Source of the DNA: an uncultured virus (IMG/VR IMGVR_UViG_2061766007_000513)
Taxonomy: Duplodnaviria; Heunggongvirae; Uroviricota; Caudoviricetes
DNA length: 47,281 nucleotides
Virus record (IMG/VR): IMGVR_UViG_2061766007_000513
Strand: one strand, 5' to 3'
Part shown: positions 1,132 through 42,356 of the stretch, piece after piece
Numbering within the stretch: position 1 is the stretch's first letter
How the letters are laid out: each line of letters starts with the position of its first letter
Position numbers and translations under genes: made by a program
The notes under the pieces: generated by a model
The model's database searches: none
What the model saw: only the letters and a program-made list of their open reading frames with translations
What the model was told of the DNA's origin: nothing

Positions 1132-1151
1132 AGAAAGGAGAGAAAATCAAA

Positions 1152-1576
1152 ATGGGTAGTGAACTTTATAGAGAGCTTGAAAGAACATGCAAGAGAACCG
1201 AAAAGGAACTTCATGATCTTAATGACAGGCTTGAACAGAACAAAAACATGATGTCACCTGCAGATCTCGATATTCTTGTTAAGATTACAGACATTATTAA
1301 AGATGTTAAATCTACAATGAAGAAAATTGATGAGATGGAGATGATGGAAGATGGTTACTCTGGCAGAATGTATGATGGAATGAATTACTCTGGTACGTAT
1401 ATGACACAGCCTATGNNNNNNNNNNTGGAAGATATTCTGGTGCTAGAGGCACGAACAGAAGCTACTCAAGAAATTCAGAACGAGAGAATATGAGAGCAGA
1501 ACTTGATGATATGCTCACTAATGCTCGTGATGATAGAGAAGCTGAAACCATAAGAAAAATCATGAACAGACTTTAA
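1152..1576 (+). CDS. Helical N-terminus plus YSG/YSR-rich low-complexity cassette protein, copy 1 (spans a gap)
   Basis: AAAGGAG RBS; after the gap the sequence reads GRYSGARGTNRSYSR..RKIMNRL* ending at TAA 1574-1576; near-identical copy at 7997..8270 (-). Confidence 0.75.
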
Positions 1577-1583
1577 TTAAAAA

Positions 1584-1638
1584 GCTTAGGGACCAGGATT
1601 GGTGGTCTGAAAATGGGGTTCGATTCCCCACCTAAGCC
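1584..1638 (+). ncRNA. Minimal tRNA-like element (acceptor stem, one hairpin, canonical T arm)
   Basis: GCTTAGG(1584-90) pairs CCTAAGC(1631-37); GACCA/TGGTC hairpin 1591-1607; TGGGG-TTCGATT-CCCCA T arm 1614-1630; intergenic. Confidence 0.65.
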
Positions 1639-1664
1639 TTACTAAAAATATGGGAGGAAAGTGT

Positions 1665-4211: not shown

Positions 4212-4240
4212 ATTACATTNNNNNNNNNNNNNNNTTCAAA

Positions 4241-5542
4241 ATGGGCAGAAAAATTGAAGGAATAACAGTAGTGTCACCTATGTGGGGTGAAACAAAGATT
4301 ACGGATCGTATGGTCTTCTCTGTAATACATCAATATTTAGGTAAAGATGAACCTATCAATGTTGAATTGGTATTAGTTGATGATTACTTAGAAGGCCGCG
4401 GTCCTAATGATGAAAGTGCTTATGAGTATTATACTTCTGAGGAATTTAAGAAGTTCTATGATACTGAGCATATTTCTATCAAGATAATAAAAAACAAAGA
4501 GCATAAGTATCAAGGCGAAAGTAGAGAAATTGGATTCTTAGCTGGTAAATATGATTGGTTTATATTAGTTGATTGTGATGATATGCTTGCTCCTAATGCT
4601 TGCGATCGTTATAGATATATAATCAATACATATTACGAAAATGATGAACAGTTCACTCAGGATAAAAAAGAACTCGCTTTTGTCTGTGGATATTTATACT
4701 CTTTCGGAGAACATGGATATGAGAATAACATTATTGGTGAATCCATTTGGGTTCAGGCAAGATGTTATAATAGAGAGTTTATAAAACTTAATGAAGTTCA
4801 CTTTCCTACAGGTACAAATTCAAGACAAGGTGAAGATTATCCGTTTATTCGAAAACTCGATTATGCTTTAAGGCATCTTGAAGATAAATGGACATCTGTT
4901 AAAGTTCCATATAATAATGGTGTTGACTGTCAGGCTACTGCATTCTGGTGGCCCAATGATGATTCATTAAGTAGAAAAGACCCTCATTATGGGCATCATT
5001 TAGCTGGTTGGACAATGGCCTCAAGTAATTCTATATTAGATTATTTTATGGAATTTAATAAGAAACATAACATAGAAGAGCAAGAAGACGAAGCAATGAA
5101 GCATGAAGTTCTCAATATGACTGTTTATGCTTTTTATAATCTTCTTGATTTCTTAAGAGAAGTAGCAGCAACAGATTATAAACCTTTGAAAGAAGATTGG
5201 AATATTCTTAAAAAGTCAGTTAGTTTACTTAAAGGTAAATTAAAAGATGTATTCTGGGATGAGATTGTATACTCTGATGTCGAAGATACTTTATTTCAAG
5301 TTAAACATTATTCTGATGTACATTTCTGTGAATCGTGGTTTGGAACATTCTATGATTTCATAAATAAAGGATTTATAATCAAAATGGGTAGTATTAAGAA
5401 AGACATTCTTGATTTAACATATGATGAGATGTTTAAATACTGCAAATCATTACAATTTGATGGAGCAGGTCATGAGATGCATTCTAAACAAGTTAAAGCT
5501 TGGAAAAAGAGACACCCAAATTTCAAAATACCAAAAGAATAA
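4241..5542 (+). CDS. Glycosyltransferase, GT2/GT-A fold
   Basis: ITVVSPMW..ELVLVDD N-terminus, G..REIG, DxD-type FILVDCDD, GED motif. Confidence 0.8.
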   Translation: MGRKIEGITVVSPMWGETKITDRMVFSVIHQYLGKDEPINVELVLVDDYLEGRGPNDESAYEYYTSEEFKKFYDTEHISIKIIKNKEHKYQGESREIGFLAGKYDWFILVDCDDMLAPNACDRYRYIINTYYENDEQFTQDKKELAFVCGYLYSFGEHGYENNIIGESIWVQARCYNREFIKLNEVHFPTGTNSRQGEDYPFIRKLDYALRHLEDKWTSVKVPYNNGVDCQATAFWWPNDDSLSRKDPHYGHHLAGWTMASSNSILDYFMEFNKKHNIEEQEDEAMKHEVLNMTVYAFYNLLDFLREVAATDYKPLKEDWNILKKSVSLLKGKLKDVFWDEIVYSDVEDTLFQVKHYSDVHFCESWFGTFYDFINKGFIIKMGSIKKDILDLTYDEMFKYCKSLQFDGAGHEMHSKQVKAWKKRHPNFKIPKE

Positions 5543-5557
5543 AGGAGATGAGAAGAT

Positions 5558-6946
5558 ATGAGACTACAGGTTGTTTCTTCAAATAGCACATATTACTGGT
5601 CTGTGACTAATGCAGTCCCTGCTAAGCCATATCTTCCAATTGCTTCTGGAGCTAATACGTATTATATACCTCTCACTACAGCAACAAGAGCTGGAATTAA
5701 GTTAAAAGTTCAATCTGGTAATACAACATATAGAGCTGCAGTATATGAATCTGGTTACTATAATACTACTAGTGCTGCTGTTGGCAATTTATCGAGTACT
5801 ACAGCTTTAACTAGAGCAAGTACTTCAGCTACATTAACCAGAGCTTCTACGAGTGCTACTCTTACAAGGGCTAGTACTTCAGCTACATTAACCAGAGCTT
5901 CTACAAGTGCTACTCTTACAAGGGCTAGTACTTCAGCTACATATACACGTTCATCTATATCTGGTTATGGTACTAGATCTTCTATATCTGGTTATGCTAC
6001 TGCAGCGAGTCGTGTTAATTATAATACTACAGTATTTACTAGAACAACTAGTAAAATTGGTAATAATATTTATACACGTAATTTTGCATATGATGCAGAA
6101 TATCTAGGAAAATATACTATTACTGGATGGAATGAAAGAGTATCAGGTAATATAATTATAGAAAAAGATCTTAGTTGGAATGGCGGNNNNNNNNNNNNNN
6201 NNNNNNNNNNNNNNNNNNNNNNNNNNNNNNNNNNNNNNNNNNNNNNNNNNNNNNNNNNNNNNNNNNNNNNNNNNNNNNNNNNNNNNNNNNNNNNNNNNNN
6301 NNNNNNNNNNNNNNNNNNNNNNNNNNNNNNNNNNNNNNNNTTTACACCAGCAGGACGTATGCCATATGGTAATTCAAGATGGACATATTATGCACAGACT
6401 ATACAAGCAACGTCAACCTCCAGCCGATATTCTTGGACAAATTGGAATTTTGATACTAATGCCGCGACTCAAACAAAAAATATGACAACAAAACCTACAG
6501 GAACTGCTAGTACAATAACATCTGCATCTTTAGTATATTATGGAAATATGTTTACTACAGATTATACTGGCACTAGTGAAGTTGATATACCTAATGTATA
6601 TCATTCAAGTTATGCTGCTTGGGTTACAGTAACATATACTAGATTAGCACACTTTAATTATATGGAAGCTCGAGTTGCTGATGTAGTAGCTACATATAGT
6701 ACTAAAGCGGTAACGACGGCTACTTTAACTAGAGCTAGTACATCCGCTACATATACAAGAGCTTCGGCGTCGGCTTATGGAACTAGATCTTCTATATCAG
6801 GTTACGGAACACGTTCTTCTATAAGTGGTTATGGAACACGTTCTTCTATTTCTGGTTATGCTACCAGGTCTTCAATAAGTGGTTATGGGACACGTGCTTC
6901 TACATCAGGTTATAGTGGAAAATTATCAAGTTCAAAATGGGCATGA
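5558..6946 (+). CDS. Ser/Thr-rich protein with two 7x9-aa repeat arms flanking a unique central domain; putative fibre/adhesin
   Basis: AGGAG RBS; TLTRASTSA and YGTRSSISG repeats; internal gap. Confidence 0.75.
   Translation: MRLQVVSSNSTYYWSVTNAVPAKPYLPIASGANTYYIPLTTATRAGIKLKVQSGNTTYRAAVYESGYYNTTSAAVGNLSSTTALTRASTSATLTRASTSATLTRASTSATLTRASTSATLTRASTSATYTRSSISGYGTRSSISGYATAASRVNYNTTVFTRTTSKIGNNIYTRNFAYDAEYLGKYTITGWNERVSGNIIIEKDLSWNGXXXXXXXXXXXXXXXXXXXXXXXXXXXXXXXXXXXXXXXXXXXXXXXXXXXXFTPAGRMPYGNSRWTYYAQTIQATSTSSRYSWTNWNFDTNAATQTKNMTTKPTGTASTITSASLVYYGNMFTTDYTGTSEVDIPNVYHSSYAAWVTVTYTRLAHFNYMEARVADVVATYSTKAVTTATLTRASTSATYTRASASAYGTRSSISGYGTRSSISGYGTRSSISGYATRSSISGYGTRASTSGYSGKLSSSKWA
5804..5992 (+). 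repeat. Seven 27-bp coding tandem repeats (N-terminal arm)
   Basis: ALTRASTSA, 4x TLTRASTSA, TYTRSSISG, YGTRSSISG. Confidence 0.9.
6722..6910 (+). repeat. Seven 27-bp coding tandem repeats (C-terminal arm)
   Basis: TLTRASTSA, TYTRASASA, 3x YGTRSSISG, YATRSSISG, YGTRASTSG. Confidence 0.9.
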
Positions 6947-6957
6947 AGGAGATATAT

Positions 6958-10964: not shown

Positions 10965-11385
10965 CACCTCCTTTACCATGATACTGGTTCTTGTTAGTGG
11001 TAAATTGTTTGAACATTTCTTTTAGTTCTGATACCTCATTTTGAATTTTTGCAATCTCTTCTTTATTAGGATCTTCTTTTGGTAACTCTTTCGGTTGTTC
11101 TTTCTCTACAAAATCCTCACGTTTATAAACTGTGAATATTGGACGTTCATTAGGATTAAAACCTAAAGACTTTGTATAGAAATACAATCCGTTCTGATCC
11201 TCAAAGACTAGATGAGATCCTGGTGCCACTGGCCAATTTTCAGCCTCACTTCGTTCTCTAACAAAATTATAATTATAAGTATTGTTAAAGACCTGATTTA
11301 GTTGTTCTTGCCTCTGTTGTGCTTGTAAGTTTTGATATTGAGGCATGTAATAATTTGGTTGATTGTAATATGGATTTTGTACCAT
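10965..11385 (-). CDS. Cassette protein with Q/N/Y/P-rich N-terminus (3' end at a gap)
   Basis: AAGGAG RBS; MVQNPYYNQPNYY..EAENWPVAPG..FYTKS. Confidence 0.7.
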
Positions 11386-12594: not shown

Positions 12595-13770
12595 TCAATC
12601 TGTAGTTTTGGTGTACTGGATTATCAAATAATCACATTGAGATGTATCTCCGTTTCTCATTGTTTGTAATTCAATTGAGCCATTATTATTTCTTGCCATT
12701 ATTTCAGTGCACACATTAATATTTCCAGAAAATAAAGTAATAGCTGTTGCTTTTATAATATACTTGCAATTATTAATTGTTTCTCCTGATGATTGCCAAT
12801 AAGTATATGAAATATCAATCTGTGATTGAAAACTAATAACCTTTTCATACAACGGCTTTCCATCAATCCACGTACCAATAACCTGTTCATTCGTACTATA
12901 ATGTTTTGCTGGAATGCCACTTGGCGTCCATTTACCAGATCCTGGAGTGTCTGTGGTTTTAGTATATTGAAGAGTTAGGTATCTGCACGGAGAATCCGAA
13001 CCATTCCTTGGTGTTTGTAGCATTATTTCATCTATTTCTGGATAAGCCATTATTTCAGCATATGTTCCAGCATCAGAAACAATTTTTGTAGTGATTATTT
13101 TATCACAATTTTCTACAGTAATTCCAGATGAAATCCAACTATTAAATGGTACTGATAAACCAGAAATACCCAAATCATAAGTTCTTTCATAAATAGGCTT
13201 CCCGTCAACCCATACACCAATTTCACGTTCCTCGAAGGAATAAATTGCTGGAAAACCTTGAGCTAATTCATCAATAGCATCTTGAATATTTCTCGATCTA
13301 AGACCACTATCAGTATTATCGTAACCAACTTCATTACCATCTATAACAGTTCCTTCATCATCATCGAGCATATACAATCCATCAGGAAGATTATCAAGTT
13401 CACTTTCTGATTGTATAACATGAATATTTTCAACCTTAGTAACATCATTAATTGAATCATCACTTACAGTTAAATCAACAAACTGAAGATTAGACCTTTG
13501 AGTCATAGCCGTGCCAGCCGGATTCTTTATTGTATGACCACCACTATTATCTTCAATCCAATTAGCACTAACTGTAGGATCAGATCCAACTAATGTATAA
13601 CTTTTATTGTTTTCCTCAACAAAGACTTTCATACCTTTGTAAGGATATTCGAAGGTATTGCTAGCCGTCAAATCTGCTAACAATTTTACAATGGTTCTTG
13701 CGTCCAAAGGGGCGCCAACCTTAGGTTCTATATTCGAAGTAAGAGTATATGTCCCTTTTGTCCTACCCAT
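12595..13770 (-). CDS. Fibre/accessory virion protein with PLDAR N-terminus and two GxWxDGKPxY domains
   Basis: GGAGG RBS; internal duplication YSFEEREIGVWVDGKPIYE..LQYTKTTD and YSTNEQVIGTWIDGKPLYE..IQYTKTTD. Confidence 0.7.
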   Translation of the reverse strand: MGRTKGTYTLTSNIEPKVGAPLDARTIVKLLADLTASNTFEYPYKGMKVFVEENNKSYTLVGSDPTVSANWIEDNSGGHTIKNPAGTAMTQRSNLQFVDLTVSDDSINDVTKVENIHVIQSESELDNLPDGLYMLDDDEGTVIDGNEVGYDNTDSGLRSRNIQDAIDELAQGFPAIYSFEEREIGVWVDGKPIYERTYDLGISGLSVPFNSWISSGITVENCDKIITTKIVSDAGTYAEIMAYPEIDEIMLQTPRNGSDSPCRYLTLQYTKTTDTPGSGKWTPSGIPAKHYSTNEQVIGTWIDGKPLYEKVISFQSQIDISYTYWQSSGETINNCKYIIKATAITLFSGNINVCTEIMARNNNGSIELQTMRNGDTSQCDYLIIQYTKTTD

Positions 13771-13785
13771 TTTGATTTACCTCCA

Positions 13786-16774: not shown

Positions 16775-17698
16775 CTATATTCCTAAGTATTCTGTCCATT
16801 TCTTTTTAGTTTCATCAACAATAAGATTATAATAACCATAATGCGTTCTAGGTATATTATTAACAATATTATCGATATCAATATAACTCATGTTAAGTGG
16901 AACTTTGTATCCGTTTACCCCATTTTGAATTTCTTGTCTAAAAGTTGGAATGTCAGTTACAATAACAGGAGTTCCAACAACAAGAGCTTCATGTACAGCA
17001 TAACAATAACCTTCAGCATCAGATAACTGAACTAAGTAATCTGAATCTGCTATATAATCTAAAAGTTTATTATGATCTATAGCAGGTAAATGGATTATAT
17101 CATTCTGGGATTTAGTTTTGAGTAATGTCAATCCATTCTTATCAATTTCAGTAAAATTATGCCAAATGTATCTAACGTTAGCCTTATTTAAAGCATCAGC
17201 CAATTGATACATTCTATCGAGACCTTTATTTTTGTAAATCCTTGAACAACTGATAAGATGAAGAACTTTAGATCTTTTTTTCTCATCAGTAACAACAGAT
17301 TCTATGTAAGCACAAGATCTATTAAAACGCCTAATAAATCCTCTAGCTGCGGTTTCAGAAACAGCTATAAAATGACCAGTAATATCAGGTAAGTCTCTTT
17401 TTATATCTGAATAGTCGCAATGAACTATCTTGTATTCTTTTTTAGCATTTATGTTCAATGGAAATTCAACAAAGTCAACCATATATAAAAGTATATCGGA
17501 TTCGTATTCTTTATCTGCTTTCCATATTTCTGTTTGTGCTAATATACTAAGTTCATTATTCATATCATTACGAAATATCTTTGATAATATTGTAATGTCA
17601 TAAACTGTATTAAGCATATTACAGAAATTTCTTATCCATGTGTATATACCATCTTTGTATGTTAAATGGTCTGCATAGATTATTAACGATTTGCCCAT
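16775..17698 (-). CDS. Glycosyltransferase, GT4/GT-B fold
   Basis: SRIYKNKG, DYLVQLSDAEGYCYAVHEALVVGTPVIVTD (EX7E-type motif), IQNGVNGY. Confidence 0.85.
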   Translation of the reverse strand: MGKSLIIYADHLTYKDGIYTWIRNFCNMLNTVYDITILSKIFRNDMNNELSILAQTEIWKADKEYESDILLYMVDFVEFPLNINAKKEYKIVHCDYSDIKRDLPDITGHFIAVSETAARGFIRRFNRSCAYIESVVTDEKKRSKVLHLISCSRIYKNKGLDRMYQLADALNKANVRYIWHNFTEIDKNGLTLLKTKSQNDIIHLPAIDHNKLLDYIADSDYLVQLSDAEGYCYAVHEALVVGTPVIVTDIPTFRQEIQNGVNGYKVPLNMSYIDIDNIVNNIPRTHYGYYNLIVDETKKKWTEYLGI

Positions 17699-20887: not shown

Positions 20888-20893
20888 GGCTGG

Positions 20894-22711
20894 NNNNNNN
20901 NNNCTCCAAAGAACTCCATCTACGTAAATATCTATGTTACGTACATACCTTTGAAGTTGTTCAAATACTTCTGTTAATGTTCCTGAAAATGTTCTAGTTG
21001 CCCATGAACCAGCTAAATAAAACGGATTACAATTCGGACCGTATGCTAAANNNNNNNNNNNNNNNNNNNNNNNNNNNNNNNNNNNNNNNNNNNNNCATCC
21101 TCTTGGTAATGTGTCTTTTGTATAAACACCGCCCATAGTTACGTTCTTTTCATAAACGAACATTCTATCGGGACTCGTTACACTATCATTATTCTTGGTA
21201 ATGGTACAAGAGTATACATTATTATTAGAATTTATCTCGACTTTATCTATTTTTGAGCTAACAAATAGAGCAGTTGTTTGTCCTTCANNNNNNNNNNNNN
21301 NAGTTCCTTGATGACTATAAGTATACCATGTAACTTTATTCATTGGATAGTACTTATACATATCTGCAGTAAATGTACTTCTATCAGAATTTGTAATAGT
21401 TGCAGTATCTTGTTCTAGTTCTCTAATCCAATCAAATCCTGTACCATTAATATTATCAATGTAAGTCTTATATTCAGGAGGAACTGGATCAACNNNNNNN
21501 NNNNNNNNNNNNNNNNNNNNNNNNGTAAATATCTTGAAATAATATGTCTTTTCTTCTTCTAAACCTTCTATATTAACTGAAGTTTCATCTTTAAGTATTT
21601 CTACAGATTCACCATCGGTTTCACTAGCAGGTTCAGAGTCTTGTTTATATGTAATTTTAGCATAAGTATAGTCATAATCTGGTAAATAGTAATTTACTTT
21701 TATAGTTGCACCAGGTTCGGCTGCTTTTAACCAATTATATAATTTACTTTCAGACTGATTTGGATTAATGCCAGATAAACTTCTGCCAACAGCGGCAGCA
21801 TAGTTACTATAACTTATATCACCAACTACAAAAGCTCCTCGTTGTTCTGTTTCATTAATCGCAACTGCAAACTTATATCCACCTTGGTATCTTCCATTAC
21901 CGCCAGTAGAATATACAAGTTGTAAATCTTCACCATCTTTTTTAAATTTAAAACTATATCCATGATCTGGCGACCATTGACCTGGACTACTCTGACAAAC
22001 TGTAATATAATATTGGCCTTTTCTATATACTTCAGTTTCTTCTTCTGGAATTTGATTACTATTAATCATTTCCCCAGTAAGATACAAATTTATAAAATCT
22101 AATTCAACTTGATCTTGTTTTCGTATCATCCAGCCATTTTCACAAACTGCCTCATCAATGATAGTTCCTTCTGATAATAATACAGAATTGCCAAAGAATA
22201 TTTGTCTCCATTTTGAAGGACCTGGTTCTGGAATAGGAACTAATTCATTATCAATATATATAGTAGTAACACTTTCATCAATATAAAAAGCTTGTTGATC
22301 CCCATAACCACTAATGTTACCACCATTTTTACCATATTGTATGCCACTGACAGTTTGAGATAAAAAATTAGTTGCAACACTAAGAGCACTTATAGCACTA
22401 CCAGTGGATCCATGTAATACATTACTTATTGACTGTATATACCGATTATCATAAATTCCAATACCAATATAATATTCACTACCACCTAAAAAAGTTGTAG
22501 TTGCTAAATATATTGTATCAGTTGACACATTAAAATAACGTATGGCGAGTCCTTCTCTTGAATTTCCACAATCATATAATACAAATGAATTTCCATATCC
22601 TTGGCTTCTCCCATATCCTAATATATTACCAACAGATACATTAACTGGTCCACCCGATGATGTCTTCTTAATAGGAACTACATCAGTCTTTTGTAATAGA
22701 AAATTAGACAT
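20894..22711 (-). CDS. Receptor-binding-like paralog 1 (stop probably in the gap)
   Basis: AAAGGAG RBS; ATIKVNYYLPDYDY block; NIDIYVDGVLW just before the gap. Confidence 0.7.
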
Positions 22712-22726: not shown

Positions 22727-25700
22727 TTAACTTATACGCTCGATAGAGAGTATTTCAGGAGCATCAATTGTTGTACCAGTACTTACACGGATGGTTTTTG
22801 TAAATCGATAGTACTTGATAGCATGACCATCTTCAGTATAAGCAGTGTAATAAGGGAAGAAACCATAGTAATATGTTCTATTAAGTTGAATAGTATCGTC
22901 AATAAAAGCCGTATTCTTATAAGCATCTTTAGTAGTAGAATCAACAATCAATTCACCATCCCAGCGATGTAAAGGAGCGCTATTACGTTTTCTGATAATA
23001 ACAGTACCTTCCCATGCGCAAGGCTTAGGTTCCCAAGAATTAATATTGTTAGGATCAGACCACTTCAGTTCTACATGAGGTTTAGTCTTGACAGTGACTT
23101 GTCCTTCTCTAGGATAACTGTCGGATGTCCAGAAACCGGGGTATTGATAACGCCATGCATTACTATATGAAATACCACCATCAAATTCTAAAAGAACATC
23201 TCCGTATTTAGGAGTAACTGTTAAACTTGTTTCTGAACCACTATCATTACCATATTTATAAAATTCGGTAGTTTGAATTTGACTTTTATTAAATCCAGCA
23301 TGATTATTATTTGGATTTTTTATAATTGTCAAAGAATTACACTCTGATCCTTCTACAATAGTTCCATTTTCAAGTTCTTGAACTGTAGCAAAGTTACTTC
23401 TTTTATGATAATATTCGTTTTTACCACCACTAGAATTATCTCCAACATATACCCATTTTGAACCATCATACAGGTACAATGGACTCGAGATATCTGTTGC
23501 ATATTCAACTCCGTCACCATCACGAACAAAACTAAAGTAATCACCGGCAGATACATTAAATGATTGTATTTCTTGACCATCGTTCCATACATTAATAGGA
23601 TTAGTAGTATCTCCAGTATGAATATCACTTTCGCCTTGATAAGGATAATCATAATAACTTGAACTATTAATTACTCTAACAGTTACTTCTTTACTTGATG
23701 ATGTAGTTACAAATCTTGCCACAACAGAAGTGGGTTCATTAAGTAACCTAAAACCGATATTCCTTATGATTTCAGCAAAGTCATCTTTAGTAAGCCCGGT
23801 AAATGTAGTACCACCAGCAGTACTAGAAGTACTATTATTGGAACTGTTATTACCATAATAACCTAATGTTTGCGCAGCATAAGTAGTTCCAGTTTTATAA
23901 TTACTGAAAGTTACATTAGCAGTTGCTCCTTTAGCAACATAAGTGTCCATCATTTTCTGAATGCCAGATATCTTACGTGAAAGAATATATGTTGGGAAAT
24001 CAAATATTTCACCAGTAACTTTATCTTCAAAATGTATTTGTATACGGTCACCGACTTCTCTTACCGGGTCTGCAAAAGTAGTTAATTCAAAAGGTGTATA
24101 TGTTCTATATTTAATAGTAGCATAACCTTGATGAAGTAAACCGTTCTTTTGATTCTTTGTTACTGGTTCTAGTACTTCTTCACCATACATTAATAAATTT
24201 ATAAGCTTAGCATATATCTCTTTAAGATGAGCTTTAGTAGGTTCTGGTTCAGGTGGTTTCTTAGCTAATTTAATATCATCTTCTTTTTTGGCCAAATAAT
24301 CAATAAACATATTGTTATTTGTTTGCATTTTCTTTAAAGAACTTGGACTTAGTTCTTTCATTTTATTTTGTTCTTTTGTTAAATTAGCATAACTAATTGT
24401 TGGTTCACTAGGGTCATCATCAAACCTAGTAACTAACTCCCAAATATGAACAGTTCCGACAGCATATTCATCATGTTTAAATCCTTTGACAATATCATTA
24501 TTATCAAAATAATTACTTGAAGCTATTTTAGTATCATCTTTAGGTAAAGGTTTAAATGTTAAAACACATTTTTCATATAAATTATAAGGATAATAACTAC
24601 TATCTGGATCTGGATCATCTGGATTATATGCGTGTAATGCATGATAGTCATCATCTTCTATATAATCAAGTCTAATGTAAGGATATCTACCTGCTAAAGC
24701 ACCAATATCTTCCAAGAATTTACCAGCAGATAAAGCTTCAGCATCCATGATCTTAGGATCTTCATAAACCGGAAGATTCATGATATCCATATATCCATAA
24801 CATTCACGAGCATTTGGATCTGGTGATTCAGGTATACTATATTTTTTAGTTGAATCAAACAAATCTGGATCAAGAACTATAGGCATTGCTAATCCGGTAT
24901 ATGGTTCATTATCATTTACTGGATATATATCGATTTGCTTTTCTTTTTTAGTATGATCTGCTGTATTATCTTCAGTACCTTTTTCTCTATTTGTTACCGT
25001 TTTTTGTCCAGGGTATCTTCTTAAAAGAAATTTAAAAAGATGCTTAAGCATATCGCCTATTGTCCATCTTTCTTGTGGTCCTTTTACAAATCCATCTTCT
25101 TTAAAAATAGGTTCTTCTTTATAATCTTCTGGAACTTTTATATTTCTATTTGTAAAATAGTCTTTAAAGTCATTATCATTATATTTTACACCTCTAAACA
25201 AATGTTTATACCAGTTATGTATATCCATATCTCTTATTTGATATAGAAAATCAAATGCTGTTATATCTCTAGTATAACCATCAGAAGAGACTTTATCTTC
25301 TTCAACAATAAACATACCCAAATATATTAATGAAGAAGAATCACCATTAAAATACATATATACTTTAATGATATAATGTGTATCAACTTCACCTACTATT
25401 GTTGTTCCATTTTCATCTGTAATAACATAGTTTTGAAGATTAGGTATATCTAATTCCCATTTACCAGTTTCTTCATTATATGTTTTATTATTTCGTATCG
25501 TAAATTTAACCATTGCAGACTCACATCCACAGAAAGCTAAATCTTCATTTGTATCTAAAGAGTTTGTATACTCAAATTTTTCTTTGTAAATATCATCATT
25601 TGTTATAACGAATTCAACCGGACGAAATACTTCATTTCCATGTTCATCAATAATAGGAGTATCAGTTTCCGGATCTAACTTAGGAACCTTATTTGTTATA

Positions 25701-26770: not shown

Positions 26771-29700
26771 TTAATAAGCTAAATTATTTCTGCCCGTACG
26801 TTTCCATTCAGTACGGTTCGTATCAACAACAAGGTTATAAATGTTAGTAGGATCCGGTTCAGCAGTAACATTAATATTAACACCTGCGCCAGATTCTATC
26901 ATTGTCATAAACGAATTAACAACACCGGTTAAGGTATCGATTCGTCCTTGTAATGAAGTAAGATTATTGGTATAATCAGTAGACTCAATACCAAATGAAC
27001 CAACTGAAGCATCAACTCTAGGTTGCATAGAATCAAGAGCTGAATTAATAGTGTCTACCCCATTTTGAAGTTGAGCGCCATCAAATATGGGAGTAACAGT
27101 AGGAGTAATGTCATTGTCTAACATGTACTGCATACCATTAAGACCCGCTATGGTTTCGTCGGTTATGAGGTCTGTAGCATCATCAATGGAATCTAAAGCA
27201 GCTTTAGTATTTTCGTCAATACCAATAGAAAGACCTTCCATTAAATAACCTCCCATTCGTTCAGTTAATTTGGAAGGAGAATTCATTTCAAAATTTTTCA
27301 TGTATCGACTTGTAACTCCAGAACAAGTTCCATCTACAACTTCGAATACTCCATTTTCGTATNNNNNNNNNNNNNNNNNNNNNNNNNNNCAAATAATAAC
27401 CATTTCCAAATATCAATTCCATTTTGTACCATAGTGTCTTTATATTTATATATTTCAGAACTAATCATTGTAATGGTAGAATCTATTCCATATTTAGTAT
27501 TTATTTGCTTTCTTGCCTGTTCAGATTCAGATAATGCTGAAATNNNNNNNNNNNNNNNNNNNNNNNNNNNNNNNNNNNNNNNNNNNNNNNNNNNNNNNNN
27601 NNNNNNNNNNNNNNNNNNNNNNNNNNNNNNNAATGTTAATACACCATTATCATTAGAATATATTAAATCTTTATTCCTAGATAAATATCCAGCGAAATTA
27701 TTACTAAAGGTTTCAATAAAATATTTATTTTCTTTTGCCAAAGCAGTATCAACAAATTCTTCCCAATCTTTACTTTCAAATATGTTGCTTGCTTTATCAG
27801 TCTGTAACATACGTACATTTTTTACGCCATGTGTATCAAGAGCATGTAACATGTAATCAGCACTAGTTGATAACTTTTCAGCATCAGTAGTATAAAAACC
27901 AATAGCAGCACTATTATTTTTAATAAGTTTTTCATATTTTTCTATTTCGCTATTAACATAATTTAATTGTCTAGATTTATATCCAGCACTTTCTGCGTTA
28001 TTAGGTTGCATAGCTTCAAGTTTTTCTTTTTCTTCATATAATTGTTTTAATTTTTCATAATAATTAAATGTTGTAACAGATGCATCATTTAAATCTTTTG
28101 TTACTTTTCCAGCATCAGGCCATATTGCATAATATGTTTCATCATCGATGAGATTCATCTTCCACATTCCAGTTCCAATTAATTTAGAAACAGGATTACG
28201 TAAAAAGAATTCAGCCATCTTTTCGGTTAAACCGCCACCAAGAGCTGTTCCTATTTGTTGACCAACACTAGACCAATTATAACCAGCAATACCGGATGAA
28301 AATTTTTCAGTAACTTTATCAACAGCTGTATCAAGTGTTGATGTAACTTTTGAATTTTCAGAAGTACCACTAATAATACCGCTAACAGTTTCAACAATAT
28401 TATCAAATTCTGGACCACCTTCGCCAAATAATCCGCTAATTTTTTCACTAACCCATCCACCAAATGAATCAAATGCTATAGAAATTTTTGGATTATCTTT
28501 TATGCCATCAATAAAATTACCAAATATATCCCAAAGACCACCAGAAGTAATTTTTGATGATTTTTTAGTATATGACTTAGCAATAAATTTATCTAAATTT
28601 TCTTTAGCTTTTATAACATTATTTGATAGCTGTTCTTCCTTTGAATAATACATATTATCGGACCACATGCCACCTTCTTTTATTCGGCCTTGTTCCAATA
28701 ATTCTTCATATTCGTTTTCAGCTTTTCTATATTCACCTATTAACCTAGAATACTCTTTCGCATATTCCGGATTATGTTTCATAAATTCATCATCTTCAAG
28801 TAATGATTTTGCAGGTACTTCTTCTTCCGCACCACCAAATATACTATCAATAAATGATTTACCCAAATCAGTACCAGCTTTTTCAATATATTTATCCATA
28901 TCTTCATTCATAAATATATCTTTATAAGCATCGGTAATACCTTTTTGAGCTTCTTCAGCAAATCCTTCACCAATAGCAGAACCTATATCTTTATTTTTCT
29001 GATATTCAGATTGAGCACCATTGATAAATCCTCTGATTACAAATTTACCATTCTCATAGAATACTTTAGAAGGTGAAGCAATTCCAAGTTCTTTCTGGAA
29101 TGATTCATTGGTTGCAACAGCAAGAGCTTTTGACGCAGATTTTACAAGTTTAGTATCTTTCTTAATTCCAAGTTCAAGACCTTTATCTATGTAGTAGCCA
29201 TTCTTTTTAAATGCTTTCGAAGGAGAATTTTCATCAACCTCTTTAGAATCTCTAAAACCTTGACCAAAACTATCTCCGGAATTCATACCGGCTTTATAAA
29301 ATTTCTTTTCGTTCTTTTCAATTCCTTTTACAGCATCATCTGATATTTTCTCAGTATCGGAAGCAAATCCTCCTTTACTTAAGAAAGTACTGCCCGGATC
29401 AAACATTTCTTTAATAACAGATAAAGCAACACCAAGAAGTATCAAGGACGTTGCAATTGCCGCTATAACAGCTGCTAGCTTTAATCCAGTACCTAAGAAT
29501 TTGTCAGCTATCGGCGTTAACACTTTAAGAGCTAATACAAATGACCAGAATAATAGTAATATTGGACCAAATACTGCAACAGCATTCATCATATTATTAG
29601 CTCCATCCTGACCAGATAATGATCCAATAATAATAGCAAATAATCCAGCAAGTGCTGCTATAGTAACTCCTATAGTGATTATAAGACCTTGAATTTTAGC

Positions 29701-36002: not shown

Positions 36003-36156
36003 ATTTTTTCTCCTTTTAGTCTTGAAAATNNNNNNNNNNATGTAATATAGTACGTATACGGTTATCTCCAGATGTCATAATTCGCTTTAANNNNNNNNNN
36101 TTAGTAAATTGTACTTTGAACGTAGTGAGAAGTCCTTTCTGTGCCCATTTTGAATT

Positions 36157-36201
36157 AAAAAAATAATAGGGGAGTATCAGAAATCCGAAGCTCCCCTATA
36201 T
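36157..36201 (-). terminator. Rho-independent terminator after the major tail genes
   Basis: ATAGGGGAG/CTCCCCTAT stem followed by TATTTTTTT. Confidence 0.8.
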
Positions 36202-37002: not shown

Positions 37003-37034
37003 GGTTTATTTTCTCCTTTCTTATTTTGTGCCGA

Positions 37035-38405: not shown

Positions 38406-38452
38406 TTCCTCCTCTCCTATTTATTTTGATTTCCGGTTAATCTTTATTCATA

Positions 38453-40822
38453 TCAAGCCTGAATAGTTCTAAGACCTGAGAAGCTAAGGATCTTAGTAAT
38501 TGTCTCACCATTAAGAGTGGTAACAACCTTAAGCTTCTGCTTATTGTCCTTGAATCTTGTAACTGACTGCATATCAGAATCAAGAGTCTTAACCTGATCA
38601 TCAGTGTAACCGCCGATTGTCTGGATAGTAACGGTTGCGCCTTCAGAAGCCTCATACTTAAGAACTACGAAGTAACCGCTATTCTCCTCAGGATCCTCTG
38701 AGTAACCGGTCCAGTTAGATACATACTTAAGAGTACCCTGAATGCTGTTGTCGTTAACGTATACATTCTGCTGAACATCGCTAACAAGCTTGCCAAGTAC
38801 TGTGGTAGAACCTTCCTCAGCCTGTACATCGATAGTAAGGTTGTATACAAACTCGTAAACGATTGCGCTGTAAGGCTTAACAAGAGCACCTGAGAATCTA
38901 GACTCCATCAGGTACTTCTGCTTGTTGAAGTCGATATCGAAATCATCGAACATGCTAAGAGCGCCACCACGATCACGACCAACAACATAGTCTGCAAGGT
39001 TAACAAGGATAGCACCAAGATACTTGGTATCATTGCCATCGATTCTGTAAAGGCCGTCAAATACAGGAACCTCAACGATCTTGCTAACACGAAGAGCGGT
39101 CTGAAGCTCTGCTACAGAGTTATACATACGTCTCTTGGTTGTATCCTTGAGAAGCAGCATATCGCAAAGCAGATCGCTTGTGATGAACATAGTAGGAGCA
39201 CCTGAACCTCTGTAAAGTCTAAGTGAACGAACTACGTTGTCGATGAAGAGCTCAGCCTTAGTATCAGCAGATGTAGAAGCTGTGATAGCGATAGATCTCT
39301 TAACTGTGAAGAGGTCATCATCTGTCCAGATAGGTCTGATGTTGTTCTCTTTGATCTTGTCAGGGCTAAGACCATTACGTCCATCACCAACAAGGATTGC
39401 ACGAGCACATTCCTCATCAAACATAACTCTCATCTCAGCCTTGATGAACTCGATAACTGAGAAATCAGTGATATCGATGATGTCATCACGGTCGATAGTC
39501 TGCTTCTTGTAAACAGTGGTAGGAGTAGTCTCTCTCTTTAACAGAGCGAATACTTCATCAACCTTACGGTTGCCCTTGATGTAACCCTTAGCACGTGCCT
39601 CATCTTCGGTAATATCAGCGAAGATAGTCTTAACACGGCTGAAAGGAGACTGGCGAACGCCATCCATAACTGTGTTAACCCACTCAGTTCTTCTCTTGAT
39701 GAACTCGGGCTTCTCAGTGTAGTTCTTTGCATTGGGGAACAGGTAATCGATATTGTCGATACCATACTCTGCGCTGTGAGCCATTACAGAATCCTTAAGT
39801 GAACCAAACTTAAGAGCATCCTGCATAATATCCTGGCAAAATTCAGCTGAATGAATCATAACTTCGTTGTTGTTTCCTTCGTTTTCGAAAACGTTGTTTC
39901 TAGCCATCTCTTTTTCTCCTTCTTCTGTAAAATTAGAATGATTTAAAGTTTCGTCATCATCGTCATTCTCTTCATCATCATCATCATCAGACTCAGAGTT
40001 ATCAGTTTCAGACGTATTGTCACCTTCTTCATTGTTCTCTTCTTCCTCAACTGAGCTATGCTCTATAGCATCGTTAGATTCACCGAAAAGACTAAATGAT
40101 TCAGGTGCTTCTTCAGTTTCGCCATCAAGATCATCATTTTCCTCTGCTGAGTGTGAAACTTCATCACCATCACCAGACTTATTGGCCTTTTCTGCTTCTT
40201 CAGCAACAATACCCATCATGATCTTCATGGCTTTAATCTGATCCTCGTTCATGGTATCAATTGTACCCTCGAGGTCAAATTCATCTTCATTCTTTTCGTT
40301 CTCCCCATCGGCAGCATGATTAAGTGATTCTTCAAACTCTTCTTCAGCTGCAGAATGAATAATGGGGTTCTCAGCGCCAGCAAATATCTGTACGGCATCT
40401 TCACCGTCTTCATCATCGGCACTAGTTCCATGTGCTAAAACTGTGTCAATCTTAGCGCCACGGTTGGCCCCCGCAAGGACAAGAGATACTTCTCTTATAA
40501 CGCCATGAGTTACATCACGGCCAGCCTGCTTAAGCTTATTTGCAAAAACAGATAGAGAATCCAAATCTCCATTCTTTATGAGGGACAAAGCTGTTTTGCC
40601 AGCCACGGTTTCCTTGTTAATGTTTCCATAACAATAGACACCGTCAGGACGATTTTCCAATGTAACATGTCCGATAACATTATCAAGTGACTTGTGGTCA
40701 TGATTGTAAACCAACGGAACCTGCATTCCATCACAATCCTTGAACGCATTCTGCTTAATAACTCTACCATCGTCACAAAGAATATCGTTCTTGGTGGCAT
40801 ATCCACTAAAATCGTAGATCAT
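38453..40822 (-). CDS. Prohead protease-linker-major capsid fusion with a C-terminal extra domain
   Basis: N-terminal HK97-type protease motifs (FSGYAT, LVYNH, LSVFA, EVSLV..GAN), acidic linker, capsid-type region ending FDDFDIDFNKQKYLMESRFSG. Confidence 0.9.
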   Translation of the reverse strand: MIYDFSGYATKNDILCDDGRVIKQNAFKDCDGMQVPLVYNHDHKSLDNVIGHVTLENRPDGVYCYGNINKETVAGKTALSLIKNGDLDSLSVFANKLKQAGRDVTHGVIREVSLVLAGANRGAKIDTVLAHGTSADDEDGEDAVQIFAGAENPIIHSAAEEEFEESLNHAADGENEKNEDEFDLEGTIDTMNEDQIKAMKIMMGIVAEEAEKANKSGDGDEVSHSAEENDDLDGETEEAPESFSLFGESNDAIEHSSVEEEENNEEGDNTSETDNSESDDDDDEENDDDDETLNHSNFTEEGEKEMARNNVFENEGNNNEVMIHSAEFCQDIMQDALKFGSLKDSVMAHSAEYGIDNIDYLFPNAKNYTEKPEFIKRRTEWVNTVMDGVRQSPFSRVKTIFADITEDEARAKGYIKGNRKVDEVFALLKRETTPTTVYKKQTIDRDDIIDITDFSVIEFIKAEMRVMFDEECARAILVGDGRNGLSPDKIKENNIRPIWTDDDLFTVKRSIAITASTSADTKAELFIDNVVRSLRLYRGSGAPTMFITSDLLCDMLLLKDTTKRRMYNSVAELQTALRVSKIVEVPVFDGLYRIDGNDTKYLGAILVNLADYVVGRDRGGALSMFDDFDIDFNKQKYLMESRFSGALVKPYSAIVYEFVYNLTIDVQAEEGSTTVLGKLVSDVQQNVYVNDNSIQGTLKYVSNWTGYSEDPEENSGYFVVLKYEASEGATVTIQTIGGYTDDQVKTLDSDMQSVTRFKDNKQKLKVVTTLNGETITKILSFSGLRTIQA

Positions 40823-40844
40823 GTTCTTTCTCCTCTCTTAATAT

Positions 40845-42284
40845 TTATTTAAACAATGAAAATGCCTCATTACTTGATGCTCCAGAATTATCATCAAATA
40901 GACTAAAAGGTTCAGACTTAGTCTTTGTAGACTTCGACTTAGACTTTGATTTGGTAGTCTTCTTTGGTGCAGGAGCCTCATTTTGATTAGAATCAAATAA
41001 AGAGAAGTCTTCAGAAGGCTCTTCTTCAACTGGTTCTTCTTCCACAGGAGCTTCACTTTCCTCCATAGGCATTTCGCCCATTGGCATCATAGGATTTTCC
41101 TCTGGATAATCAGGCATGTTAGCATTGTTTAATTCATCTGCTTTCGGATCATCTGCAGGAGGCATACCAACTTTCTGTCTTAACTCATTAGGAGTCATAA
41201 TCTGGTTACGTGAGAATACATCAGCAATCTTAGCAATCTCACTAGTAGGTATATACCTGAAGGGATCCTTAAAGAACACGATTGACTGCCCTTGTGTACG
41301 AGCAGTTTGTGTAAGCCATTTACGCTTCATTTCATTAACTAAAGCCATGCAAATAGGTTCAATTATACTTGTTATGTAGTTATTAATGATAGTTTCGTTT
41401 GCAGTACCATTAAGCAACTCATCACTTATACCCAATTGCTGTTTGTAAGTGTCCATCAGATACTTAATATGCTCAAGCAAATTGTTTTCTAATGGCTTAC
41501 TTAATTGAATTAGCTTTTCATTAATATCCATGTAAGCAATTCCTCTTGGACTATCTGCAAGTTGCTCTTCAATCTCATTAATACGCTTATTAGCATAATC
41601 CTGTTTCAAAGTAGACCTTGTGTTATAAGGTACTTGAATGATCATGTTGAGTTTTGTACTTGCCGATTCATTGTCAATTACATCCAAAAGGGATAGTTTT
41701 TTGTAAATCCTTTGTAACACACTATTAGGCTCATTCATAATGCTATACATAGGATTCTGTATAATAGCTGCCATCTCTTTAGAAAAGATTCTTTCTTCAA
41801 ACATTCCTTTATAAGGATTCCAAATACGAACCTTTATCTTTCTGGGATACCATTCTATTATGTCAGCACATTCCAACTGGTAAATCTTAAAGCTACCAGT
41901 TTCATCAGGATTATTGTCACTGTCTGTTGGTATGATAGCAACAACACCCTGTTTAAGCATACGCTCTACAGCATCTTGTATTAACGCCATACCAGACTGA
42001 TCTATATTAGCTTCAGTATTAAGACACTCTTGAAGAGATGATCTTATAGGAGAGACATAATGACCGTATTCGTCAACTTTACAGTGAACTACATTAATTG
42101 CAGCAACGTCTCTCGCTATTTTATTGTATATAGCATTAATTATACATCTGTCATTGTAACTTCTATAACTTTGTGTTATTGGTGAAGTAGCATATGCTGG
42201 ACCCAAATCTTGATACGACTCTTGTGTGGGATCTCTTCCCATAAATGCATTCCAAGCATGCTTGATTCTATTCTTAAAATCCAT
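40845..42284 (-). CDS. Portal protein
   Basis: Between terminase and protease; MTPNELR..G.PP..AD.L motif. Confidence 0.85.
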   Translation of the reverse strand: MDFKNRIKHAWNAFMGRDPTQESYQDLGPAYATSPITQSYRSYNDRCIINAIYNKIARDVAAINVVHCKVDEYGHYVSPIRSSLQECLNTEANIDQSGMALIQDAVERMLKQGVVAIIPTDSDNNPDETGSFKIYQLECADIIEWYPRKIKVRIWNPYKGMFEERIFSKEMAAIIQNPMYSIMNEPNSVLQRIYKKLSLLDVIDNESASTKLNMIIQVPYNTRSTLKQDYANKRINEIEEQLADSPRGIAYMDINEKLIQLSKPLENNLLEHIKYLMDTYKQQLGISDELLNGTANETIINNYITSIIEPICMALVNEMKRKWLTQTARTQGQSIVFFKDPFRYIPTSEIAKIADVFSRNQIMTPNELRQKVGMPPADDPKADELNNANMPDYPEENPMMPMGEMPMEESEAPVEEEPVEEEPSEDFSLFDSNQNEAPAPKKTTKSKSKSKSTKTKSEPFSLFDDNSGASSNEAFSLFK

Positions 42285-42356
42285 TTTGAGTTTCTCCTTA
42301 GAATTATTTTTGAAACGAAAAATTACATCGAAATAAGATGGTAATTTATAATCTCC

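Follow-up and report, generated by a model that had tools for sequence, protein, structure and literature searches.

A strand-polarised word in the late genes of a phage family and its possible reading by a phage-encoded RNA polymerase

Why should one nine-base word recur among the genes of a tailed phage, and only on their coding strand? The question arises from a 47,281-nt stretch of DNA from an uncultured virus of the Caudoviricetes, here called the window. An earlier note, made from the sequence alone, had picked out 11 copies of TCAAAATGG (Table 1) and taken them for a genome-wide cis signal, with a strand-specific nick site, a Chi/KOPS-like translocation, packaging or ejection signal, and a site that a phage protein binds on DNA or on late mRNA, as candidates.

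Distribution and enrichment of the word

An exact scan of both strands recovers the 11 copies, each with the orientation of the ORF that contains or follows it and none antisense, as the earlier note had claimed; the motif strand flips along with gene orientation within the window. By k-mer count, TCAAAATGG heads the window's 9-mers and TCAAAATGGG, with nine copies, its 10-mers. The base 3′ of the 9-mer is G in nine copies and A in the other two (22208 and 42281), also as claimed. The description of placement held for the single intergenic copy (36145), but not for the copies that supply a start ATG, of which the note had four and the longest ORFs give five. The remaining five are intragenic and, from the ORF coordinates, fall in three frames, confirming that this is no peptide motif. 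For the looser octamer TCAAAATG the strand bias is not absolute, with 14 sense copies and one antisense (+24027, within a minus-strand gene). Further copies may hide in the 2068 window bases that are masked as N. The copy at 1147 lies outside a segment of the window bounded by inverted repeats. The hairpin beside the intergenic copy folds at -20.5 kcal/mol (z = -3.78), and none of 200 shuffles folds as well.

Table 1. Motif copies, sense-strand variants and the terminator-like hairpin in the window
Feature	Position	Strand	Setting
Motif copy	1147..1155	+	ATG 1152 starts ORF 1152-1493; AAGGAGA Shine-Dalgarno upstream
Motif copy	4236..4244	+	ATG 4241 starts family-2 glycosyltransferase ORF 4241-5542
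Motif copy	5379..5387	+	Within glycosyltransferase ORF 4241-5542, in frame (IKMG); 171 nt before next ORF (5558)
Motif copy	6932..6940	+	ATG 6937 starts DUF4422 ORF 6937-7779
Variant TCAAAATGA	11036..11044	-	Within ORF 10930-11385
Motif copy	13767..13775	-	ATG 13770 starts ORF 12595-13770 (391 aa); GGAGG upstream
Motif copy	16920..16928	-	Within group-1 glycosyltransferase ORF 16775-17698, frame QNG
Motif copy	22208..22216	-	Within 631-aa ORF 20825-22720, frame SKW
Motif copy	23453..23461	-	Within 1029-aa tail ORF 22727-25816, frame SKW
Motif copy	27060..27068	-	Within last piece of tape-measure gene 26771-27409, frame QNG
Motif copy, intergenic	36145..36153	-	Between major tail protein gene (36232-37002) and tail assembly chaperone gene (35502-36002); directly after terminator-like hairpin
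Terminator-like hairpin, UAGGGGAG...CUCCCCUA then U run	36166..36199	-	Directly upstream of the 36145 copy
Variant TCAAAATGA	40978..40986	-	156 nt upstream of capsid-protease gene start (40822)
Motif copy	42281..42289	-	ATG 42284 starts portal gene 40845-42284; AAGGAGA upstream
Variant TCAAAATGA	45843..45851	-	Within connector-like gene 45671-46006

The note's rough estimate of under one chance copy agrees with dinucleotide-preserving shuffles of the window (n = 100), which held 0.82 copies on average and four at most, none reaching 11. Enrichment also survived the codon-aware and Markov backgrounds that the note had named as checks. With synonymous codons shuffled inside each ORF (200 shuffles), the means for intragenic sense copies were 1.16 in the window (5 observed), 2.04 and 2.27 in the complete uncultured relatives G001 (14) and G003 (9), and 1.33 in Faecalibacterium phage FP_oengus (10); in each case 0 of 200 shuffles reached the observed number. 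The surroundings of the portal gene in 58 related contigs (713,419 bases; portal identity 44-99%, GC 34-55%) hold 203 sense and no antisense copies, against order-3 Markov expectations of 8.7 and 4.1, although related loci, here and below, are not independent samples, many coming from one metagenome project. The motif is a selected, strand-polarised cis signal, carried by related genomes: these contigs, five complete relatives and cultured phages.

Across the related contigs the AAAAT core is strict, and changes at the outer positions are tolerated on the sense strand only (27 versus 1 at position 1, 50 versus 1 at position 2, 104 versus 1 at position 9). At position 8, G to A is likewise sense-only (11 versus 0), while G to C or G to T stays at background. 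The context of TCAAAATG(G) is mostly A-rich on the 5′ side and purines on the 3′ side. In 20% of 131 distinct copies the ATG is a start codon, and a further 18% precede one by 1-50 nt; the figure for random positions is 8.7%. Intergenic copies have a Shine-Dalgarno sequence directly 3′ of the motif. The intragenic copies, at 104 of 183 distinct contexts the majority, show no pull towards gene 3′ ends; T7 and phiKZ promoters differ in this, which counts against a promoter. No conserved -35 partner of the motif was found.

The late block and the polymerase-like gene

The claim of a genome-wide signal did not hold. In the five complete uncultured relatives (G001-G005) and in FP_oengus, TCAAAATGG is confined to the structural and lysis block. 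The copies in the relatives (19, 9, 15, 15 and 19) are clustered and all on one strand per genome; G001 has its 19 within 22.5 kb and none in the remaining 43.6 kb, and G003 its 15 within 33.6 kb and none in the remaining 26.4 kb of the 60.0 kb fetched. FP_oengus has 17 forward copies and one reverse, with no exact copy at 6.1-37.1 kb. The motif strand follows gene orientation in the window, but the early genes of the five relatives have no copy of TCAAAATGG despite lying on the same strand as the late block. Early regions carry other strand-specific words, which resemble host -35/-10 promoters.

The block begins 1-5 kb downstream of the gene for a conserved protein of ~930 aa with a DFDGD catalytic loop and helix-turn-helix (HTH) ends. 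A homologue of P0001, a protein of this kind, is encoded immediately upstream of the block in all five complete relatives and has the DFDGD loop. In 80 loci fetched via this protein, there are 5 sense and 6 antisense copies upstream of its gene (581,766 bases), none on either strand within it (216,308 bases), and 135 sense and no antisense copies downstream (408,661 bases). Of the loci that extend 5 kb or more on each side, all 32 have more copies downstream, and the median distance from the end of the ORF to the first copy is 3.0 kb. The 1-5 kb of genes in between contain no exact copy, which counts against a promoter.

In Arthrobacter, Gordonia, Streptomyces and Lactococcus phages with the ~930-aa protein, too, the structural arm is marked by the core TCAAAATG. 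Sense and antisense counts are 8 and 0 in Rima (0.2 expected), 5 and 0 in Crocheter (0.24 expected) and 4 and 0 in Mudcat; in Lactococcus phage CHPC971, nine of ten octamer copies lie at 6.9-24.4 kb and none is antisense. The word is kept across phages of two bacterial phyla (Firmicutes and Actinobacteria) that have the polymerase-like protein in common, in genomes ranging from 34% to 60% GC. In Rima, Crocheter, Mudcat and FP_oengus the capsid-protease gene starts at the ATG of the motif, and the first three conserve TCA AAA TGG in the gene that lies between their two tail-tube genes.

By its sequence motifs the ~930-aa protein is a putative polymerase. The same family has been put forward as a YonO-like single-chain RNA polymerase on the strength of HHpred and a DxDGD motif, according to a preprint (bioRxiv 10.1101/842583). 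In the present analysis Pfam gave HTH domains only, with a sigma-region-4-like HTH at the C-terminus, a PDB search gave no match to a polymerase, and similarity to YonO by hhalign was not significant (E = 0.2-0.33). The gene is absent from the 47,281-nt window; relatives with portal proteins 63-65% identical suggest that this phage, too, has such a polymerase, encoded beyond the window's right end.

A putative late promoter

Of the candidates in the earlier note, only the last, a site bound by a phage protein on DNA or on late mRNA, survives, and it can be sharpened: TCAAAATGG is a putative promoter or initiator for a phage-encoded RNA polymerase, with a probability of roughly 0.6. The reader would be the phage's own single-chain, HTH-bearing, YonO-like two-barrel enzyme, which may use its HTH modules to bind the word or may bind it at a melted AAAAT stretch. 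On the model of the phiKZ late promoter, transcription would start at the purine of motif position 8 or 9, that is, the G of the ATG or the next G; the purine tolerance at position 8 fits the purine requirement at a start site. Copies in short intergenic gaps would then yield mRNAs beginning just before the Shine-Dalgarno sequence. If the start is at the G, copies whose ATG is a start codon cannot serve that gene, which counts against this reading.

The late promoters of the phiKZ non-virion RNA polymerase are given as 5′-T(-3)ATG(+1)-3′, the TATG overlapping the start site being required (Yakunina et al. 2015, PMC4666361). Common to both cases would be a non-canonical polymerase of the two-barrel class (here putative), specificity for late genes, and a very short AT-rich word that ends in ATG/G at the start site (here proposed) and lacks -10/-35 boxes. 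However, the phiKZ enzyme has five subunits and the candidate reader here one chain with HTH ends, the phiKZ word is 4 nt long and necessary but not sufficient whereas this one is 8-9 nt, and here most copies are intragenic and the start sites are predictions from sequence.

YonO transcribes the late genes of SPbeta from one start site upstream of yonK, its promoter being described as undetermined (Forrest et al. 2017, PMC5467207). Like YonO, the putative polymerase is a single chain with a DxDGD loop whose gene lies shortly before terminase/portal late genes, and an exonuclease gene lies nearby in both settings. Unlike YonO, for which no HTH ends are reported, the present protein has them, and similarity between the two proteins is not significant. 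SPbeta, the sole system studied experimentally, lacks TCAAAATGG in the late-region stretch examined and uses one start site, which counts against a promoter. So does the tail-protein junction of four related loci (L007, L017, L024 and L061), where the motif lies just 5′ of a hairpin that in L017 and L024 is followed by a T run and is terminator-like. No printed description of the word was found in the literature. T7 class III promoters also recur every few kilobases along a one-directional late region, with an AT-rich part and then a G-rich start, and are read by a phage-encoded polymerase (here putative); they differ in being 23-bp intergenic sites for an unrelated single-subunit polymerase family.

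Other possible readers

The word could instead act on late mRNA, whether nascent or mature, or during elongation on the non-template strand, an unlikely reading, if a conceivable one. It might bind a phage protein (as a translation enhancer, start-associated sequence or mRNA stabiliser), serve for processing or allow an antitermination factor to reload. Its restriction to the sense strand and the late block, its unstructured A-rich context and the 38% of copies at or just before start codons (7/9 in Mudcat) are consistent with this. The word also partly resembles GGGATAGGAGCCC, the start-associated sequences found in cluster K mycobacteriophages, of unknown function in the published description (Pope et al. 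2011, PMC3203893). These are likewise clade-specific short repeats in one orientation, fused to a ribosome-binding site just before starts, and Mudcat's TCAAAATAGGAG form looks alike. As described, though, nearly all of them lie 3-7 bp before a start and they are confined to the non-structural half, while it is the structural half that the present word marks, and most of its copies are intragenic. Those intragenic copies are found in every frame, are favoured by selection and are conserved as nucleotides against GC-rich codon usage, as in the tail-tube example; a role in translation leaves them unexplained, and cleavage there would destroy mRNAs. Nor has the purine-only tolerance at position 8 an obvious rationale in RNA binding.

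It is improbable that the late promoter is read by host RNA polymerase core with a phage sigma-like factor or activator, CAAAAT being a -10-like element and GG(G) a discriminator. T4 late promoters, TATAAATA, are read in this manner by gp55/gp33 with the sliding clamp. They resemble the present word in being stand-alone 8-bp AT-rich sites with no -35 box, in many copies co-oriented with late genes and some inside upstream genes, but T4 uses host core plus a phage sigma, with the word at -10, whereas a phage polymerase is the likely reader here and a Shine-Dalgarno sequence often directly follows. The short word without a conserved -35 partner, restricted to one block and following gene orientation, would suit such a reader. 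CAAAAT matches TATAAT at positions 2 and 6, keeping the A and T of that -10 element, and recognition of -10 elements is conserved across phyla, which would let phages of Firmicutes and of Actinobacteria share the word. Against this, a start ~7 nt past the T would fall behind the Shine-Dalgarno sequence of many intergenic copies, the block begins right after the polymerase-like gene, and no sigma-like gene was found except for the C-terminal HTH of that protein.

More doubtful still is a sequence-specific single-strand nick site (of the T5, phiKMV or tf type) or a polar packaging or ejection signal, perhaps acting through HNH-terminase machinery. The word is strand-specific and its copies rather evenly spaced (gap CV 0.51-0.72), an HNH endonuclease gene adjoins the terminase genes, and the motif block makes up the part of the genome nearest the terminase, from which it points away. 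However, half or more of each complete genome lacks the word even though all genes lie on one strand, copies are placed preferentially at start codons and ribosome-binding sites, and in the window the motif changes strand together with the genes, including at the 1147 copy outside the inverted-repeat-bounded segment. An HNH gene beside the terminase is a common cos-cutting arrangement, and that of the window is presumably the usual terminase-associated HNH, with no link to the motif needed. Late-block restriction, the strand flip and occurrence in phages of two phyla argue against nick, packaging, ejection and Chi/KOPS-like signals alike. Least credible is a polar word read by the host (a KOPS/SRS-like word, a restriction/defence target or one giving Chi-like protection from AddAB/RecBCD) or a by-product of coding or composition: host-read words are typically 5-9 nt and strand-skewed, but this one is block-restricted and shared by phages of Faecalibacterium, Lactococcus, Arthrobacter, Gordonia and Streptomyces across 34% to 60% GC, and its enrichment over Markov and codon-shuffled nulls speaks against a by-product.

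The word is thus real and kept on the coding strand across the particle-building genes of a large phage family that appears to have its own small RNA polymerase, which makes a late-start signal for that polymerase the most likely explanation and TCAAAATG(G) most likely the core of a clade-specific late-transcription signal. If the phage polymerase is indeed the reader, the copies at start codons and within long genes would be extra entry points that keep a late operon of 25-60 kb transcribed.

Distribution of the word and its position relative to genes

The 9-mer TCAAAATGG, referred to here as the word, is more frequent in the window than any other 9-mer, and TCAAAATGGG heads the 10-mers. The 11 copies counted by eye in the earlier note were recovered at the same positions, all on the sense strand, against 0.82 expected from shuffles, and the polarity proposed there also stands; the strand of the word flips with gene orientation. 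One-mismatch forms likewise lie mostly on the sense strand, and the octamer core TCAAAATG occurs 14 times in sense and once in antisense. Five copies rather than the four first given supply the start ATG of a gene (at 1152, 4241, 6937, 13770 and 42284), whilst the single intergenic copy, at 36145, is as described. The remaining five are intragenic and are indeed spread over three frames; when synonymous codons are shuffled within each ORF the mean is 1.16 and none of 200 shuffles reaches five. A plain translation-start context was rejected, because intragenic copies in all three frames exceed this codon-shuffled null. Copy 36145 directly follows a terminator-like hairpin, and the two together would look like the layout expected of a terminator-promoter pair. 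At the tail-protein junction of four relatives the copy comes before a hairpin and not after it, with a T run then following in two of them, as in a terminator.

The word was expected to be present in related genomes, and it is. Searching viral contigs with the portal yielded 58 loci (portal identity 44-99%, GC 34-55%), which are related and thus not independent samples. In 713,419 b they hold 203 copies in the sense of the portal gene and none on the opposite strand, and with two GenBank faecal-virome records added the count is 221 versus 0 in 807,914 b. An order-3 Markov model of the 58 loci predicts 8.7 sense copies; the antisense shortfall (0 versus 4.1 predicted) is weak evidence of depletion, given this relatedness. 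The flank consensus is an A-rich stretch, W, TCAAAATGG and then purines. The AAAAT core is strict across relatives, and changes at positions 1, 2 and 9 are tolerated on the sense strand only (27 versus 1 antisense at position 1, 50 versus 1 at position 2 and 104 versus 1 at position 9). At position 8, G to A is found 11 times in sense and never in antisense, and changes of the G to C or T do not exceed background.

Among 183 distinct contexts, 50 are start-codon-like, 40 are in-frame inside longer ORFs or ambiguous, 64 are intragenic and out of frame, and 29 are intergenic or other. The majority (104/183) are intragenic, unlike classical phage promoters and in contrast to the location in front of genes of T7- and phiKZ-type promoters. 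A downstream gene is present for 131 distinct copies: 20% form its start codon and 18% precede it by 1-50 nt, compared with 8.7% for random positions. Together 38% are at a start or at most 50 nt before one; the others do not cluster toward gene 3' ends. Typical intergenic copies are immediately followed by a Shine-Dalgarno sequence and start codon. The pattern differs from that of the start-associated sequences of cluster K mycobacteriophages, virtually all of which lie 3-7 bp upstream of starts in the non-structural half; the window has five of its 11 copies inside genes, and the word marks the structural half. Nearest to those sequences is Arthrobacter phage Mudcat, with seven of nine copies at annotated starts or 9-10 nt before them. 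An RNA-seq paper on Rhodococcus phage WC1 was set aside, as this phage belongs to an unrelated cluster.

The late block and the polymerase-like gene

The earlier proposal that the signal is genome-wide does not survive comparison with five complete uncultured relatives (G001-G005), in each of which all copies lie on one strand and are clustered. Nearly all genes of G001, G003 and G004 are on the word's strand, and their replication/early parts carry no copies. In G001 all 19 copies fall within 22.5 kb and 43.6 kb is free of them, G003 has 15 in 33.6 kb and none in the remaining 26.4 kb of the 60.0 kb fetched, and G004 has 14 at 18-73 kb plus a single copy at 135.3 kb. Inside the block the copies are spaced more evenly than expected at random (gap CV 0.51-0.72).

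Early and replication regions of relatives have repeated one-strand words of their own: TGATATTT (36 versus 2) in FP_oengus (L074/L080), TTTACA-N-CTATAGTAG in Lactococcus phage CHPC971 (L081-L083), and GTGATATT, CTATAGTGAGACCCC, CTATAATGAGACCCC and GGGGTTTGGGTTT, the further early-word loci being L062-L064 (G003), L087-L089 (Rima) and L090-L092 (Crocheter). Several of these, such as the two named with their phages, look like host -35/-10 promoters, and these genomes would therefore be divided between two signal classes.

Cultured phages show the same restriction. The 17 forward copies and one reverse copy of FP_oengus begin at the start codon of the terminase gene (37138) and extend across the tail and lysis genes to small post-integrase genes (2441-6070), with no exact copy at 6.1-37.1 kb. 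Streptomyces phage Rima (59.6% GC) has eight forward and no reverse copies of TCAAAATG (0.2 expected), Gordonia phage Crocheter five forward and no reverse (0.24 expected) at a spacing of 3-4 kb, and Mudcat four forward and no reverse plus five TCAAAATAGGAG forms. In CHPC971 the 9-mer is not enriched (two copies, 1.17 expected); the octamer is the top late-specific 8-mer, never antisense, and nine of its ten copies fall at 6.9-24.4 kb. In Rima (gp14), Crocheter (gp21), Mudcat (gp12) and FP_oengus (gp71) the ATG of the word serves as the annotated start of the capsid-protease gene. Each of the three actinophages has a copy shortly before its ‘virion structural protein’ gene, as a ninth- or eighth-base variant in Rima and Mudcat, and the gene separating the two tail-tube genes retains an intragenic TCA AAA TGG while the adjoining codons differ.

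Just upstream of the block in G003 is a 934-aa ORF, P0001. It contains VRFPHGG...SGADFDGDTVMV, and its C-terminal HTH gives weak matches to sigma-70 region 4. Its SGADFDGDTV and VRFPHGG segments correspond to the DxDGD loop and R-x-P-H of YonO-like polymerases, and it matches phrog_4291 (‘RNA-dependent RNA polymerase’) from end to end. In all five complete relatives a DFDGD homologue immediately precedes the block when read along the direction of transcription, and DFDGD is invariant in 14 of 14 aligned sequences; the five cultured genomes checked likewise have the polymerase-like gene. The gene is not within the 47,281-nt window. Alignment of the protein with YonO by hhalign is not significant (E = 0.2-0.33), the catalytic loop nonetheless being aligned; PDB searches gave no polymerase match and a Pfam scan no match to the RdRP family PF05183. 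This family is precomputed for two of 120 listed homologues, and one Atlas cluster with PF05183 scored 0.88.

GenBank phage records with a tblastn match to the protein number 250 (Arthrobacter 95, Gordonia 55, Streptomyces 54, Lactococcus 13, Faecalibacterium 2, others), with genus tallies close to those of 244 records found via the capsid-protease fusion. In metagenomes at least 8000 protein clusters match, and all 8000 scored have E <= 1e-10. Many metagenome sources label members of the family only as DNA-binding or response-regulator proteins, owing to the HTH. Koert et al. (bioRxiv 10.1101/842583) have proposed that the HTH protein is an RNA polymerase, on the grounds of an HHpred probability of 95.68% to the Pfam RdRP family and the DxDGD motif, and call it a signature of an actinophage, Lactococcus and Faecalibacterium group; ‘promoter’ is absent from the available portion of that text.

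The association also holds when the search starts from the protein. In 80 further loci, fetched via the polymerase-like protein alone, the 581,766 b upstream of the gene contain five sense and six antisense copies and the 216,308 b inside it none, versus 135 sense and no antisense copies in the 408,661 b downstream. Distinct contexts number five upstream and 116 downstream, and downstream copies exceed upstream ones in every one of the 32 loci that extend 5 kb or more to both sides. The first copy comes 1.1-5.2 kb past the end of the ORF (median 3.0 kb), the genes up to that point having no exact copy. A single homologous site, shared by closely related contigs, accounts for four of the five upstream copies. 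In L119, L137, L139 and L142, four closely related contigs, the gene preceding the polymerase-like gene has a conserved in-frame TCAAAATGG 326 nt upstream of the ORF, which could be a coding coincidence or could supply transcription to the polymerase gene. In Rima, Crocheter and Mudcat all copies are in the structural arm and the polymerase-like gene is at the right end of the genome, so that it would precede the arm if the ends join on circularisation.

Gene content of the window

The window is a siphovirus late region, of which 2068 b are masked as N.

Principal features of the window
Feature	Coordinates	Strand	Remarks
HNH endonuclease	46276-46716	-	
Connector-like protein	45671-46006	-	
Large terminase	42357-44160	-	broken up by mask only
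Portal	40845-42284	-	
Capsid-protease fusion	38453-40822	-	
Two major tail proteins	36232-37757	-	
Tail assembly chaperone		-	
Tape-measure gene	26771-34454	-	very long
Further tail proteins and group-1 glycosyltransferase		-	
Plus-strand block	2-8045	+	two small conserved proteins, fibre-like 853-aa protein, two glycosyltransferase-like genes

Runs of N (42942-42951, 27363-27389, 30740-31464 and others) cut the terminase and tape-measure genes into several apparent ORFs; these splits are masking artefacts and not verifiable frameshifts. The tail protein genes at 36232-37002 and 37035-37757 are tandem paralogues, both phrog_2645. Actinophage relatives likewise have two genes annotated as major tail protein, but with another gene in between.

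Near-perfect inverted repeats (1239-1459 and 7998-8270; 94-100% over ~220 nt) bound a 6.5-kb cassette carrying the fibre-like and glycosyltransferase-like genes, flanked by ORFs at 2-1131 (+) and 7941-9449 (-). Beyond the repeat arms are two diverged copies of one gene pair, face to face (52% and 41% amino-acid identity). The cassette looks like an invertible one, able to couple to either upstream module; alternatively, its orientation was left unresolved by the assembler. Homologues of the plus-block genes in G004 run in the same direction as the late operon, which suggests that the block is inverted in the window.

Just upstream of the ORF at 1650-4211 is a compact two-hairpin element (1584-1637, +) closed by a GCUUAGG/CCUAAGC stem and holding the tRNA T-arm-like GGGGUUCGAUUCCCC and a variant, TGAAAATGG. 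It folds at -22.9 kcal/mol (z = -2.18) and has no match in ARAGORN or Rfam, and the whole window gives no tRNA or Rfam family. A sigma-70-type scan of 7-12 kb is at shuffle level (21 sites, 21.6 in shuffles), and 10 kb of the window has no near-identical match among GenBank phages by megablast. Among the 23 sequencing runs listed, two labelled bovine gut metagenome contain 0.97-0.98 of sampled words, and may come from the sample of origin, and four metatranscriptome runs contain 0.23-0.35.

A probable late transcription signal and its possible readers

The word is selected at the nucleotide level and appears, on comparative grounds, to be conserved together with the polymerase-like gene in phages whose hosts belong to two phyla and whose GC content spans 34-60%. 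Because it is also sense-only and limited to the block, it is most simply explained as a signal for transcription that some phage-encoded factor reads. As in a late promoter, a short conserved word is co-oriented with the genes on one strand of the late block only. The polymerase-like protein is the obvious candidate for its reader.

Reading by a phage polymerase is plausible because there are published precedents. The late genes of SPbeta are transcribed by YonO, a single-chain enzyme and the one relative studied, whose promoter is described by its authors as yet to be established (PMC5467207); the phiKZ non-virion polymerase is described as requiring only T(-3)ATG(+1), overlapping the start site (PMC4666361). 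SPbeta differs in that its late region, when searched, does not contain the word, and in lacking a multi-site arrangement (PMC5467207). By analogy, the first transcribed base would be the purine in position 8 or 9, since the tolerance at position 8 is for purines only, the bases after the word are purine-rich, and a start further downstream would cut off the Shine-Dalgarno sequence adjoining intergenic copies. If transcription begins at the G, the start-codon copies cannot serve their own gene.

A more radical form of the polymerase reading, to which we give little credence as a whole, is that the word is a complete initiator, recognised without sigma by the HTH modules of the single-chain polymerase itself. 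With the start inside the word, start-codon copies would give leaderless or nearly leaderless mRNAs, and promoter and start codon would be one element, of the portal gene here and of the capsid-protease gene in the Streptomyces, Gordonia, Arthrobacter and Faecalibacterium phages. The intragenic array would then be a set of re-entry points, which might offset the limited processivity of a stripped-down enzyme over a 25-60 kb operon.

Other readers or functions are less probable still. The word may act in the RNA or be coupled to elongation, which we consider unlikely, or it may be a T4-like promoter read by the host core enzyme with a phage factor, for which we would allow a smaller chance again. 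Nick or packaging signals, among the first candidates considered for this word, are very unlikely. Nicks of the T5 or phiKMV type fall on one physical strand independently of transcription, whereas the word is restricted to a block and its strand follows gene orientation in the window; the strand flips there, and copy 1147 lies outside the segment bounded by the inverted repeats. Chance or a host-read word can practically be dismissed, a Chi- or KOPS-like word being host-lineage-specific with a genome-wide skew and this one being found in phages of two phyla and absent from the early halves.

In the main texts of the papers searched there is no description of the word or its link to the protein, and looking for the word or its complement as a text string gave primer-type matches only, among the matches listed.

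A very large group of phages has the polymerase-like protein as its hallmark, with an activity predicted from sequence and a promoter at the level of a candidate. A conserved candidate word of 8-9 nt in culturable phages of Arthrobacter, Gordonia, Streptomyces and Faecalibacterium makes it directly testable how a minimal two-barrel enzyme would recognise its promoter. The word is also a potential simple marker of late regions in gut and rumen viromes and, if the polymerase reading is true, a compact orthogonal polymerase-promoter pair may be possible for Gram-positive hosts.
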